This document shows, in pieces, positions 20,224 to 50,776 of a stretch of 64,000 nt of DNA. How positions within the stretch are numbered: the first letter of the stretch is position 1; each line of letters begins with the position of its first letter. Where the stretch lies: NCBI GenBank assembly GCA_015075075.1, contig JABTVA010000001.1, positions 51,662 to 115,661 on the forward strand, given 5' to 3'. The notes beneath the pieces were generated by a model. The model saw only the letters and a list, made by a program, of their open reading frames with translations, made no database searches and was not told the origin of the DNA. Origin of the DNA: Deltaproteobacteria bacterium. Its GTDB lineage: Bacteria > Desulfobacterota > GWC2-55-46. The position numbers and the translations under genes were made by a program.

Positions 20224-20384
20224 TATCAGCTTACTGAAAAACTCATTCAGGCTGCTCAAAAAGCTCCAGATGCGAGGCCCCCATTGAAATAGGGGAGCGA
20301 GGCATGAGGCGTACTTTCCGTGTACGCCGCAGTAACGAGCGACGTAGCCTTCGACGCAGATGGACTTTTTCAGCAGCCTGCTAG
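20224..20384 (+). mobile_element. Family A MITE copy A3
   Basis: Consensus match. Abuts the 3' end of the ftsH remnant. Confidence 0.8.
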
Positions 20385-22281
20385 TTGCTTATTTTACGGA
20401 GGGGCTCGACGCCTTTCGTCCTCCTTATTATGTCCTCCACGTCCTCCTTGTCCAGGGACTCGTCCTTGAGGAGCGCGGCCGCAAGCTCCTCTAACGTCTT
20501 CCGCCCCCGTAGAAGGATCTCGTCCGCCTTCCTTTCGGCCGTTATTATAAGGTTCCTTATCTCCTTGTCCATGAGCCAGGCCATCGTCTCGCTGTAGCGC
20601 TTCTGGACCGATATGTCCCTGCCGATGAACGGGTGCTCCTCGCCCCTGCCGAAGTTTATGGGCCCGACCTTGTCGGACATGCCCCACTGGGCGACCATCT
20701 TCTCCGCAAGGGCCGTCGCGTTCTTCAAGTCGTCGTTCGCGCCGCTGCTTACGTACATGAAGACCAGCTTTTCGGCGGCCCTCCCCGCGAGCGCAACACA
20801 GAGCCTGTTTATGAGATAACTCTTCGGGTAATAGTGCCTGTCCTCCTCGGGAAGGAACTGCGTAGCGCCCAGGGCCATGCCCCTCGGTATTATGGAGACC
20901 TTGTGTATGGGGTCCGTATGCGGGAGCTCCCAGGAGACCAGCGTGTGGCCTGCCTCATGGTACGCGGTTATCCTCTTTTCGTCCTCGGAGAAGCTCTCTT
21001 CCCTCTTGGAGCCCATTATAACCCTGTCCCTCGCCTCCTCAAAGTCCCTCATCTCTATACGCTCCTTGCCTTTCTTCACGGCCTCGAGCGCGGCCTCGTT
21101 CATGAGGTTTTCAAGGTCGGCCCCGGTCATGCCGGGGGTTCCCTTGGCTATCTTCTCGAAGTCGATCTCGGGGGCTATCCTCTTGTTCCTCGCGTGGACC
21201 TCGAGAATTGACTTCCTGTCCTTCCAGCCGGGCCTGTCTATGACGATGTGGCGGTCGAAGCGGCCGGGCCTTAAAAGCGCCGGGTCGAGGGACGTCCGGC
21301 CTGTTGGTGGCGGCTATGACTATTATCTCCTCGTGCGGCTCGAATCCGTCCATCTCGCTGGGGCTGGTTCAGGGTCTGCTCCCTCTCGTCGTGCCCCCGC
21401 CGAGGCCCGCGCCCCTGACCCTCCCGACGGAATCTATCTCGTCTGCCAAGAAGATTATCGAGGGCCGGGTCTCGCTGGCCTTCTTGAACATGTCCCTCAC
21501 CCTGGACGCGCCCGCCCACGAACATCTCGACGAACTCTGACGCTTATGCTGAAGAGGGGACGCCGGCCTCGCCTGCCGTGGCCCTCGCAAGGAGCGTCTT
21601 GCCTGTGCCCGGCGGCCCTATGAGGGGTATGCCTTTGGGGACCTTTGCGCCTATCGATGTGAACCGGGCCGGGTTCTTGAGGAACTCGACCGTCTCCTGG
21701 AGCTCCATCTTCGCGTTCTCAAGCCCGGCGACGTTCATGAACGTGATGCTGGGCTTTGCGCATGTTGTGAGCTTCGCCTTGCTCATGCCGAGTTAAGGCC
21801 CTGGCTGCGCCGCCATTGCTGCACTACCCTCTTATGATGAGGAACCAGATTCCGATTATGAGGACCCACGGCAGGAGCAGTATCACGAACTGCCATAAAG
21901 GCGACCCGCCTTCGTCAGGCTCGACGTTTACGGCTATGCCTTTTTTTTCGAATTCCCCCAGTATCTCCGGCCCTGGAACGCGGGAGATAGGTCATGAAGA
22001 CCGGCGGCAGGTCCGGGCGCGCCCTCGGGGCCGGGAACACCCACCTGGACCGGGCTCTTGAACTCGCCGGTCACCTCCTGCCCCTTCATGGTTATCGAGC
22101 GGATGTTCCCGGCCTCGAGCTGCTCCTGGAACTCCGTATAGCTTATCCTCTGCTCGGCCCCTGTCCCCTCCTCGACCGACTGGCCCCATATATAGAGGAA
22201 GAGCCCGAAGAGCACCAGGGCTATCAATATCTTCCATCCGCCCCCCCTCTCGGAGTTGGGGTATTTGGAGTCCTCGGCCAT
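20381..22281 (-). pseudogene. ftsH: ATP-dependent zinc metalloprotease FtsH, disrupted by at least 4 frameshifts
   Basis: Pieces recovered in three frames: N-terminal TM (21934..22281), Walker [14 protein letters not shown] (21544..21786), [13 protein letters not shown] / [10 protein letters not shown] (21271..21590), MDGFEPHEEIIVIAATNRPD (21111..21353) and the HEAGH protease domain (20381..21130). Confidence 0.8.
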
Positions 22282-22439
22282 ATTTAGAGTCTATAAGATA
22301 TTCCGATTAAATCAATCGGCGGGAAATAGATCAGCCTGATGAGACTGGAAGGATTGCAGGATTTTTGAGGAGGTTACGGGTGGACGCGGAGTGCCGGATT
22401 CAGACAACCTCTAAGAATTAGGGAAGGTCTGATTAATTC

Positions 22440-22555
22440 CGTTTCTTGCGGTCATTGCGAGGAGTGAAACGACGAAGCAATCTCAAAGTGCCTGATATTC
22501 AAAAGAAGAGATTGCTTCGCTGCGCTCGCAATGACGAATGCACGAATTAATCAAG
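22440..22555. repeat. Family D palindromic hairpin repeat (GTCATTGCGAGGAGTGAAACGACGAAGCAATCTC ... GAGATTGCTTCGCTGCGCTCGCAATGAC)
   Basis: Long inverted repeat seen in the sequence. Confidence 0.7.
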
Positions 22556-22582
22556 CTTCCTTAGCTATTTTTCCCGAGGTCT

Positions 22583-48095: not shown

Positions 48096-48810
48096 ATGCG
48101 GAAGCTATCTCTTTTTTCATCTGCGCTATCGTCTTCGCGTAATCGGTGGTGGAGAAGACTCCCGAGCCCGAGACGAAGACGTCGGCCCCGGCTGCTGCCA
48201 CGGTACGGATATTGCCGGCCTTTATGCCGCCGTCCACTTCGAGCTCTGTTCCTGCCCGTAGCCTCGATCATCCGGCGGACGGCGCTTACCTTTCCGAGTG
48301 TCGCGGGTATAAAGCCCTGGCCGCTGAAGCCCGGGTTCACGGACATGACGAGGACGAGGTCCACGTCCCCGATGATCGCTTCGAGGGACGACGCCGGGGT
48401 GCCGGGGTTTATAGAAACGCCCGCCCGGAGCCTGTGCCCCTTTATGGCCTGCACCGCCCTGTGGAGGTGGGTGGCGGCCTCCACGTGTACGGTTATTATG
48501 GCGCTTCCGGCCCTGGCGAAATCGTCTATGTACCTTTCCGGCTCCTCGCGAGGTGCACGTCAAGCGGTAGCCTGGTCCCCTCCCTTATGGCCTCGATGAC
48601 GAAAGGCCCTATGGTGATGTTCGGGACGAACCGTCCGTCCATCACGTCTACATGGACGTAATCGGCGCCTCCGTCCTCAAGGGCCTTAAGTTCAGAGCCG
48701 AGCCTGGTGAAGTCAGCCGAGAGTATCGAGGGGGAAATCTTCATGATCACTCCGAAACGGCGGGATTCCCTTCCGGGATGTTGCCCAGGCGCAAAAGCGC
48801 CTGCTCCGCC
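48096..48810 (-). pseudogene. rpe: Ribulose-phosphate 3-epimerase with two single-base frameshifts
   Basis: [12 protein letters not shown]...DVHL (frame a), ...VSINPGTPASS...LVMSVNPGFSGQGF...IEATGR (frame b), then ELEVDGGIKAGNIRTVAAAGADVFVSGS to the stop (frame c). This last frame was translated by hand. Confidence 0.75.
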
Positions 48811-48851
48811 AATTTCATACCAGAACCGGGCGGCTTTGTCCACCTGTACTT

Positions 48852-50580
48852 TCAGCAGTAGAGCGGGCTCTTGCATGTGAGGACCTGCTCTGCCCTGGTC
48901 CCCGACCTGTAGACGGTAACGCCCTTGCAGCCGAGGCTCCATGCGGCGAGGTAGGCGGCCCTCACGTCCTCGACAGAGGCGTCAGGAGGAAGGTTTATGG
49001 TCTTTGAAACCGCATTGTCGGTATATTCCTGGAAGGCGGCCTGCATCTTTATATGCGCCTCGGGCGGCAGCTCATAGGCGGTCACGAATATCTCCCTTAT
49101 CCGCTCCGGCACCTCGTCCCTGTCCCTCAAGTCCCCTCCCCTGGCCACGTGCTCGATAAGGCTCTCGTTATGGAACCCCTCCTCCTTCGCGACCTCGGCG
49201 ACGAGCGGGTTCACCTCGGGTATCTCAACGCCGTTAAGCACCTGTCTTATGTAGCTCAACGAAAAAAACGGCTCGATCCCGGAAGAGCAGGCGGCTATGA
49301 TGCTGAGCGTCCCTGTGGGCGCTATGGTCGTAACCGTCGCGTTCCGTACGGGAGCGGCCCCGGGCTTGTCGAAAACGCTCCCCCTTATATTGGGGAAGGG
49401 GCCCCTTTCACGGGCAAGGGCCCTGGAGGCCTCCCACGCCTTCTCGCTTATGAACTTCATGAGCCTGCGCGCTAACGCGACGCTTTCGTCGCTCCCGTAC
49501 CTGAGCCTCAGGCGGACGAGGAGGTCGGCAAAGCCCATGACGCCGAGGCCGATCTTCCTATTTCCCTTGGCCATCGCGTCTATCTCGCTCGTGGGGTACT
49601 TGCTCATCTCTATGACGTCGTCGAGGAAGCGGACGGAGAGCTCTACCGTATCTTGAAGCTTCTCCCAATCGAGGGCCCATGCGCCGCGCTCGTCTTTCAC
49701 CATCTTCCCGAGGGTTAATGGAGCCCAGGTTGCAGGGCTCGTAAAGGGAGTAGCAGCGGCTGCTCTCCACGGGTTCGTCGCCTCGAAAGAGCCGAGGCGC
49801 GGGGTCAGGTTCGTCCAGTTTATGCACGGTCTATGAAGGGCACCCCGGCTCGCCGCTCCTCCAGGCGTTCCCGGCTATGAGGTCGAAGACCTCTCTTGCG
49901 GAGAGCTTCCGGCGCTCGCGCCGGTCCTCAGGTTCTGGCTCTGTATGAGCCGCCCTCCCTCGAGGGCGCGCATGAAAGTCCGTGACCGCGACCGAGAGGT
50001 TGAAGTTCCTGAACTCGTCCGGGTCTTCCCTTGACCGTTATGAACCGTATTATGTCCGGGTGGTCCACGCGGAGTATGCCCATGTTCGCGCCCCTTCGCG
50101 TGCCGCCCTGCTTTATGGCCTCTGTCGCGGCGTTAAATACCCTCATGAACAGACCGGCCCGCTCGCGCCCTCCGGTGGAGCCGATGTCGTCCGCCGGGCG
50201 GAGGCGCGAGAACGAAAACCCGGTGCGCCGCCGGACTGGTGTATGAGCGCTGTATTCCACCGCCACGAATATGGATTCAAGTGAATCGTCGACAGGGATG
50301 ACGAAGCGAGGGCCGCGAGCTGCTGGAGCCGTCTCCCCGCGTTCATGAGGGTCGGGGAGTTCGGAAGGAATTCGAGCGAGGACATGAGGCCGTAGAAGGC
50401 CTCCTCGTAGCGGGAGGCGTCCCCGGGCCTCCCGAAGAGGGCCTCGGCCTGCGCTATATTCCCGGCCACGCGCCTGAACATCCCTTCAGGGCTTTCGACC
50501 ACGCGGCCTGACTCGTCTTTCTTGAGATACCGCTTCTCGAGAACGGTAATCGCGCCTGCTGGCGAGAGCCGGAGGGCCAT
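48852..50580 (-). pseudogene. nrdJ: Class II (adenosylcobalamin-dependent) ribonucleotide reductase NrdJ, with multiple frameshifts in its 5' half
   Basis: The C-terminal 283 aa are intact (48852..49703). Upstream fragments [19 protein letters not shown] (49928..50266) and ITVLEKRYLKKDESG...[12 protein letters not shown] (50143..50580) are in different frames. Confidence 0.75.
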
Positions 50581-50634
50581 CGGGGCACCTCTTTAGGAAG
50601 TGGTTTACGGCATGGCAGCCGGAACGTTATAAAG

Positions 50635-50776
50635 GCAACCTCTAAAAATCAAAGATTTTTAACGCTTTTCCCGGAAGGCAGGGAATAAAAAACGGAGCAT
50701 ATATGACGATATGTGAGCATTTTTATTCCCGTAACTACCCAGAGTCCGGGGAAAAGATCAATTTTTAGAGTTTGCC
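50635..50776 (+). mobile_element. Family B MITE copy
   Basis: GGCAACCTCTAAAAAT...AGCATATATGACGATATGTGAGC...ATTTTTAGAGTTTGCC, followed by ATTGATTTTAA. Confidence 0.8.

Follow-up and report, generated by a model that had tools for sequence, protein, structure and literature searches.

Disrupted genes and repeats of the window

A 64,000-nt stretch of DNA of Deltaproteobacteria bacterium (hereafter the window; NCBI GenBank assembly GCA_015075075.1, contig JABTVA010000001.1, positions 51,662 to 115,661) was analyzed, in which ftsH, nrdJ, rpe, udp, nadC and two further genes are interrupted by frameshifts or a stop codon. The window has a GC content of about 58%, and its genes are mostly located on the minus strand; the codon-usage frame track served as a coarse map only. 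According to a protein search, the ValS protein encoded in the window (P0121, 893 aa) matches exactly MBE7413726.1 of an NCBI metagenome-assembled genome (MAG) with the locus tags HS130 and a 318,041-bp contig. A literature search for the accession numbers gave no hits.

Homologous loci were collected for comparison. The loci of two assemblies of the same population (hereafter sister assemblies) were retrieved as DNA around P0122, an 896-aa ValS from other assemblies that was found in the protein search with ValS and is essentially identical to P0121, and around exact window proteins. Logan contigs, which are uniform short-read assemblies, each of one Sequence Read Archive (SRA) run, were taken from the runs SRR11593520 (L104, L100), SRR19543874 (L105) and SRR21762700 (L107). 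A protein search with FtsH gave only partial proteins with an identity of at most 73%, and the close relatives came from a scan of genome contigs. L001 (Deltaproteobacteria bacterium UBA5799) and L002 (GWA2_55_10) were obtained in a scan of species-representative genomes, for which the intact C-terminal part of FtsH served as query, and L018, L019 and L024 in a scan of metagenomes with the intact part of NrdJ. Nucleotide identity to the window was 83–87% for L001 (colinear with positions 12457–25512) and 70–76% for L018, L019 and L024 (colinear with 38–60 kb). The sister contigs, each a single colinear block, correspond to the following parts of the window:

2602–25260: L098 (GCA_048500075.1)
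24700–44021: L101 (GCA_048500075.1)
34598–55143: L099 (GCA_023384475.1)

Together they cover positions 2602–55143, and these 52.5 kb constitute the compared sequence; positions 1–2601 and 55144–64000 lie outside the comparison. In the nucleotide alignment, the three contigs are 99.4–99.7% identical to the window, repeats included. The genes of interest are listed below, where the letters A and B denote copies of two short repeat families:

11365–12357, minus strand: nadC, in two in-frame halves (Pfam QRPTase_N and QRPTase_C), with TAG at 11911–11913
12597–15278, minus strand: valS, an open reading frame (ORF) without interruption that lacks 1 nt at 12604 and has a K852M mismatch at 12724
20381–22281, minus strand: ftsH (Pfam and tblastn), between A3 and A4; broken in this assembly only
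33198–34664, minus strand: sigma-54-dependent response regulator of the NtrC type; broken in this assembly only
36300–37947, minus strand: second copy of a pair of tandem paralogs, divided by a +1 shift within a T run at 37452
43171–44009, plus strand: udp (uridine phosphorylase, Pfam PNP_UDP_1), between A5 and A6
48083–48742, minus strand: rpe, with Pfam Ribul_P_3_epim split over two frames, −2 at 48250 and −4 at 48548; between A7 and B6
48852–50580, minus strand: nrdJ (class II ribonucleotide reductase of the 576-aa type), between A7 and B6; broken in this assembly only

The first-pass annotation, made from the sequence alone, had described at least four shifts in ftsH, two in udp, two in rpe, at least three in nrdJ and an in-frame TAG in nadC next to the repeats B1/A1. 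All of these were found again, in or beside short intergenic repeats. The sigma-54 activator and the second paralog were absent from that list.

In the window, ftsH consists of at least six ORF fragments across three frames, and the Walker A, Walker B and second region of homology (SRH) motifs can all be read when the frame is tracked across the shifts. A three-way nucleotide alignment with L001 and L002 revealed 14 window-unique indels at 21291–21999, whereas the 900 nt downstream and the 270 nt upstream of this stretch contain none. The lesions of udp are −1 at 43249, +1 at 43846 and approximately 21 extra in-frame bases at 43875–43945. In the sigma-54 activator, Pfam Response_reg and a truncated Sigma54_activat are located on one ORF and HTH_8 on another. 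The tandem paralogs (536 aa, 34693–36303, and 548 aa, 36300–37947, both on the minus strand) share about 69% identity, and neither of them has a Pfam match. Because of the +1 error at 37452, the second paralog is annotated in the source MAG as two hypothetical proteins, MBE7413738 and MBE7413739 (HS130_00340 and HS130_00345). The region of the paralogs also shows an atypical AT skew and a weak codon-usage signal.

Copies of the repeat families are distributed as follows:

12415–12575: family A (about 161 nt, seven copies resembling miniature inverted-repeat transposable elements, MITEs)
19135–19290: family A, inverted
20221–20381, plus strand: A3, flanking ftsH; at the same site in L098, absent in L001
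22677–22837, plus strand: A4, flanking ftsH
42739–42899, plus strand: A5
44034–44194, plus strand: A6, in which the short-read contig L100 and the contig JASNYS010000002.1 terminate
47921–48081, plus strand: A7, in which L100 terminates; 5 differences from the sister assemblies at 47996–48034
12288, 30132, 32558 and 50640: family B (about 116 nt), four full copies
9046 and 22611: family B, two partial copies
50640–50755, plus strand: B6

The unit of family A is composed of three copies of the motif CAGSCTGCTSAAAAASTCC, two direct and one inverted. A third short repeat family, TGTCATTSYGAGCG.AGCGAAG..., is also present in the window.

Comparison with assemblies of the same population

Between the window and the sister assemblies, 161 differences were found, namely, 63 deletion events, 39 insertion events and 59 mismatches. 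As many as 154 of them fall into 16 clusters that span about 3.0 kb, or 5.7% of the compared sequence, which corresponds to an error rate of approximately 5% inside the clusters versus approximately 0.014% outside. Stretches of up to 6.5 kb between clusters are 100% identical, and only 7 mismatches occur in the approximately 49 kb outside the clusters. Clustering to this degree greatly exceeds chance and bears out the earlier opinion that uniform sequencing error is unlikely. In the region where L099 and L101 overlap (34598–44021), both contigs give the same set of differences from the window, indel placement aside. The patches range from tens of nucleotides to about 740 nt, with indels of 1–2 nt as the main type of error, and any gene lying under a patch resembles a frameshift-riddled pseudogene. 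The following patches are of particular relevance:

9075–9167: inside a partial copy of the B type; 16 differences, including 11 deletions
21289–22027: patch 1, inside ftsH; 32 differences (16 deletions, 4 insertions, 12 mismatches)
22328–22553: intergenic, upstream of ftsH; 7 differences; overlaps a short repeat at 22473–22538
33430–33753: patch 2, in the sigma-54 activator; 16 differences (8 deletions, 4 insertions, 4 mismatches; 12 indel events)
43846–44053: patch 3, from the 3′ end of udp into the left end of A6; includes a putatively chimeric insertion of about 23–25 nt
49712–50310: patch 4, inside nrdJ; 30 differences (11 insertions, 11 deletions, 8 mismatches)

All 20 indel events of ftsH relative to the same-population assembly are located within 21289–22027, and the 22 indel events of nrdJ within 49712–50310. 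The TAG codon of nadC results from a single C>A difference at 11912, the codon being TCG in the sister assembly.

In the sister assemblies, all affected genes are intact at the syntenic position. These are FtsH (637 aa) and NadC (327 aa) in L098, the sigma-54 activator (465 aa) and the second paralog (548 aa) in L101, Udp in L099 (261 aa) and L101 (264 aa), and Rpe (219 aa) and NrdJ (576 aa) in L099. The short-read contigs L104, L105 and L107 match the sister assemblies at 100.000% identity from end to end and differ from the window at the patch sites only; L104 and L105 contain the intact sigma-54 activator and L107 the intact Udp. L100 (SRR11593520) is 100% identical to window positions 44138–47944. 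Thus, the lesions are absent from three short-read assemblies wherever these overlap a patch, that is, in the sigma-54 and udp patches.

Since two other assemblies and three short-read assemblies have the genes intact, the frameshifts and the nadC stop are very probably private consensus errors of this one MAG assembly and not mutations of the organism. Of the two explanations offered by the first-pass annotation, this is the one that invoked locally low-quality assembly patches. The mechanism named with it, collapsed repeats, does not agree with the alignments, which are colinear and without missing segments, all repeats being present.

The large neighbouring genes were described earlier as intact. 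Their ORFs are indeed open, namely, valS (893 aa), three kinases (825, 994 and 961 aa), the EF-G paralog (700 aa) and the HD-GYP protein (884 aa), but valS carries a cryptic 1-nt deletion and the K852M mismatch. The deletion at 12604 changes the C-terminus of ValS from ...ERIRSIRA (896 aa) to ...ERIRT (893 aa), and open reading frames in this contig are no guarantee of correct sequence. The errors do not single out essential genes, since the sigma-54 activator, the second paralog, several repeat copies and the 3′ end of valS are also affected.

Programmed recoding, i.e., ribosomal frameshifting or stop codon read-through, was considered as an alternative to consensus error. Apart from the coding potential that continues past each shift, nothing favours it, and its probability is practically negligible: each gene would require tens of shifts, which vary in sign and size (−4 to +6) and lack a common slippery motif, and none of them is shared by the relatives or by other assemblies of the population. 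Targeted mutagenesis of the kind produced by diversity-generating retroelements (DGR), or of another kind, was ruled out by the mixed-size indels, which are absent from the population.

Orthologues in relatives and selection

The other explanation offered earlier was that the broken genes are second copies in decay, lying in duplicated or acquired segments delimited by MITEs, with functional copies elsewhere in the genome. The gene order around the broken genes is conserved in five relatives with 70–87% nucleotide identity (ftsH in L001 and L002; udp, rpe and nrdJ in L018, L019 and L024) and in both sister assemblies, with one intact copy in each at that place. L001 and L002 encode an intact FtsH of 638 aa between the same kinase and response-regulator genes as in the window. 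At the syntenic positions of L018 and L024, intact NrdJ (576 and 578 aa), Rpe (224 and 232 aa) and Udp (267 and 326 aa) are found, respectively. Because the relatives hold intact orthologues at the same positions, the broken genes are themselves orthologues and not second copies. The gene order across the repeats is unchanged in relatives without those repeat copies, and the GC content is unremarkable, so the segments do not have the features of acquired DNA.

The ratio of nonsynonymous to synonymous substitution rates (dN/dS), which had been proposed as a check for decay, was determined against L001, and among the patches for that of ftsH only, after its frame had been corrected using the reading frame of L001:

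ftsH, N-terminal clean part: dN/dS 0.18, amino acid identity 89%
ftsH, patch 21290–22006: dN/dS 0.10, amino acid identity 89.5%
ftsH, C-terminal clean part: dN/dS 0.06, amino acid identity 96%

According to the frameshift-aware protein-to-DNA alignment, NrdJ, Rpe and Udp show 74–80% identity to L018 along the whole protein. There is no sign of relaxed selection at the lesions. Since the dN/dS and identity of the ftsH patch and the identities of NrdJ, Rpe and Udp stay orthologue-like, an old pseudogene with 14–20 indels in 700 nt is unlikely.

One finding speaks for a second copy. An intact Udp of 261 aa, identical to that of the sister assemblies, is deposited as MBE7414878.1, and because this accession belongs to the same series as the MAG's own proteins, udp is probably represented a second time, in intact form, on another contig of the MAG. 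However, MBE7414878.1 is 100% identical to the syntenic Udp of the sister assemblies, as expected of a redundant short contig. The short-read contig L107 (1,155 nt) spans exactly the inter-repeat segment between A5 and A6, which suggests, as the simplest reading, that MBE7414878.1 comes from a similar small redundant contig for this interval. No accession of the MBE series was found for an intact FtsH, NrdJ or NadC. No other observation favours a second copy, and MBE7414878.1 bears on udp alone. Taking into account the syntenic orthologues, the dN/dS of 0.10 and the repeats, which behave as simple intergenic insertions, redundant copies in decay are an extremely improbable explanation.

Repeats and distribution of the differences

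The positions of the A and B copies are identical in the window and the same-population assemblies. The A copies that flank ftsH are not present beside ftsH in L001 (about 85% nucleotide identity), and L019 and L024 carry A- or B-type copies at other intergenic sites (L019, 10861–11163 and 11989–12070; L024, 2851–3011). For these reasons, the repeats are mobile intergenic insertions rather than the borders of imported segments, and the A and B families represent genuine mobile MITE-like elements of the clade.

The differences are enriched 4-fold in repeats, which contain 19% of them and make up 4.4% of the sequence. The median distance of a cluster to a repeat is 40 nt, closer than under random placement (permutation p ≤ 1e-4). 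The inter-repeat segments with ftsH (2.1 kb), udp (1.1 kb) and rpe-nrdJ (2.5 kb) have 11–18 differences per kb versus 0–2 per kb in the other inter-repeat segments of at least 0.5 kb. The spatial association with repeats described in the first-pass annotation is thus genuine, but it arises from the assembly. Local GC content, considered as a cause, does not distinguish the patches, whose values are 47–65%, with 70–71% only in the two smallest clusters. As for the spectrum, indel events (102) outnumber mismatches (59), and deletions outnumber insertions. The 1-nt indels comprise 49 deletions and 28 insertions; 66% of them have an identical base as neighbour, and 47% occur within runs of at least three. 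Of the seven isolated mismatches, five are transversions, one being the C>A behind the nadC TAG. In summary, the lesions occur in this assembly alone, form clusters, consist mainly of indels, and are enriched in or near short interspersed repeats.

The reality and mobility of the repeat families in the clade, together with the enrichment of lesions near repeats, would also agree with true and very recent strain-specific pseudogenisation, for example, genome decay in the course of MITE expansion. Several observations contradict it. About 100 private indels should bring scattered private single-nucleotide polymorphisms, whereas only the 7 off-cluster mismatches exist. The indels of ftsH and nrdJ (20–22 events) are confined to 600–740 nt, and the other 900 nt of each gene are free of them. 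The ftsH patch has retained its low dN/dS; ftsH, nrdJ and rpe would have to be hit all at once; and the assembled contigs of three short-read runs show only intact sigma-54 and udp alleles. Pseudogenisation of this strain is thus very unlikely. It is highly improbable, too, that the long-read assembler captured a minority subpopulation with dense indel patches beside MITE copies, as could arise by error-prone repair synthesis after excision or insertion.

Probable origin of the errors

The contig appears to stem from long-read or hybrid assembly, with accurate correction at the level of short reads not extending over its whole length. A length of 318 kb and a spectrum that is rich in indels and linked to homopolymers point to a long-read-derived consensus, and the perfect background suggests accurate correction over most of the contig. 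Short-read polishing or assembly can fail at interspersed repeats, as is known from hybrid assembly and from tools such as Polypolish. Logan contigs end at repeats: L100 inside A6 and A7, L104 and L105 both at 33082, and L107 contains only the interval between A5 and A6; one sister contig also terminates at a repeat. Repeat copies thus break up the short-read assemblies of this organism, and it is probably there, and in the short stretches of unique sequence that separate closely spaced copies, that correction failed and a noisy long-read consensus would have been left; spots of low short-read depth may also have remained uncorrected.

Several points weigh against consensus error, or against this account of its origin. 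The three largest patches, those of ftsH, nrdJ and the sigma-54 activator, are located in unique sequence, 325–450 nt from the nearest repeat, so that repeat-linked failure of polishing would be only a partial explanation. The multi-base insertions of 5–7 nt at 43875–43945 poorly fit nanopore homopolymer error, and the insertion of about 23–25 nt at the edge of A6, which duplicates 44303–44337, poorly fits base-calling error; both rather suggest misassembly or chimeric reads. The evidence on the ftsH and nrdJ patches consists of the sister assemblies and the relatives, the short-read contigs covering the sigma-54 and udp patches. The conclusion is drawn from the comparison of assemblies, and the sister assemblies may not be fully independent of the raw data of this MAG.

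With regard to the A6 edge, a 35-nt stretch from inside the LigD_N gene (44303–44337) is duplicated at 44021–44055, where it replaces part of A6. Since this duplication is absent from L099, it looks like a chimeric junction or a misassembly.

Relation to known artefacts and consequences

Gene-fragmenting indels, which give rise to so-called pseudo-pseudogenes, are documented for long-read assemblies (PMC12007338, Kastor; PMC9262707; proovframe, bioRxiv 10.1101/2021.08.23.457338). The errors of the window resemble those of long-read and hybrid assemblies in being indel-dominated, deletion-biased and often homopolymer-linked, in fragmenting conserved genes whose pieces are annotated as separate hypothetical proteins, and in being absent from better-polished or short-read assemblies. 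Unlike them, they are tied to repeats and confined to about 6% of the sequence, with 5% error patches against a perfect background, and include multi-base insertions and one putative chimeric junction that go beyond base-calling error. The termination of contigs at repeat copies and the enrichment of differences in repeats and in the short segments between them are features shared with repeat-linked polishing failure; the location of the three largest patches in unique sequence is not, and ambiguous read placement alone is insufficient to account for it. Many broken housekeeping genes beside abundant small repeats are also reminiscent of true pseudogenes in mobile-element-rich, genome-reducing bacteria, but relaxed selection, shared lesions and scattered substitutions are not observed here, and the clustering of lesions is extreme. 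The pattern is a patchy, repeat-associated version of the long-read indel artefact and not a biological feature.

As a consequence of these errors, ftsH, nrdJ, rpe, udp, nadC, the sigma-54 activator and one paralog appear pseudogenic or split in the HS130 MAG, and the C-terminus of its ValS is wrong. Metabolic reconstruction from this assembly, or the inference of a missing essential gene, would be wrong as well. GCA_048500075.1 and GCA_023384475.1 are better assemblies of the organism and preferable to this contig. A patchy error profile can mimic selective gene decay, and comparison with assemblies of the same population settles such a question fast.

Genes adjacent to udp

A stand-alone ORF of 175 aa with a LigD 3′-phosphoesterase domain (44056–44583, minus strand) is located next to udp, and its last approximately 55 codons read into A6. 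This MITE-encoded C-terminal tail appears to be real, as the same 175-aa ORF is called in L099. Directly upstream of udp, a gene of the DsrE family and tusA are located (41865–43165, plus strand). The 279-aa DsrE ORF of the window is an over-extension: a protein of 169 aa is called in the sister assemblies, and the upstream part of the longer ORF overlaps a short repeat at 41826–41985.

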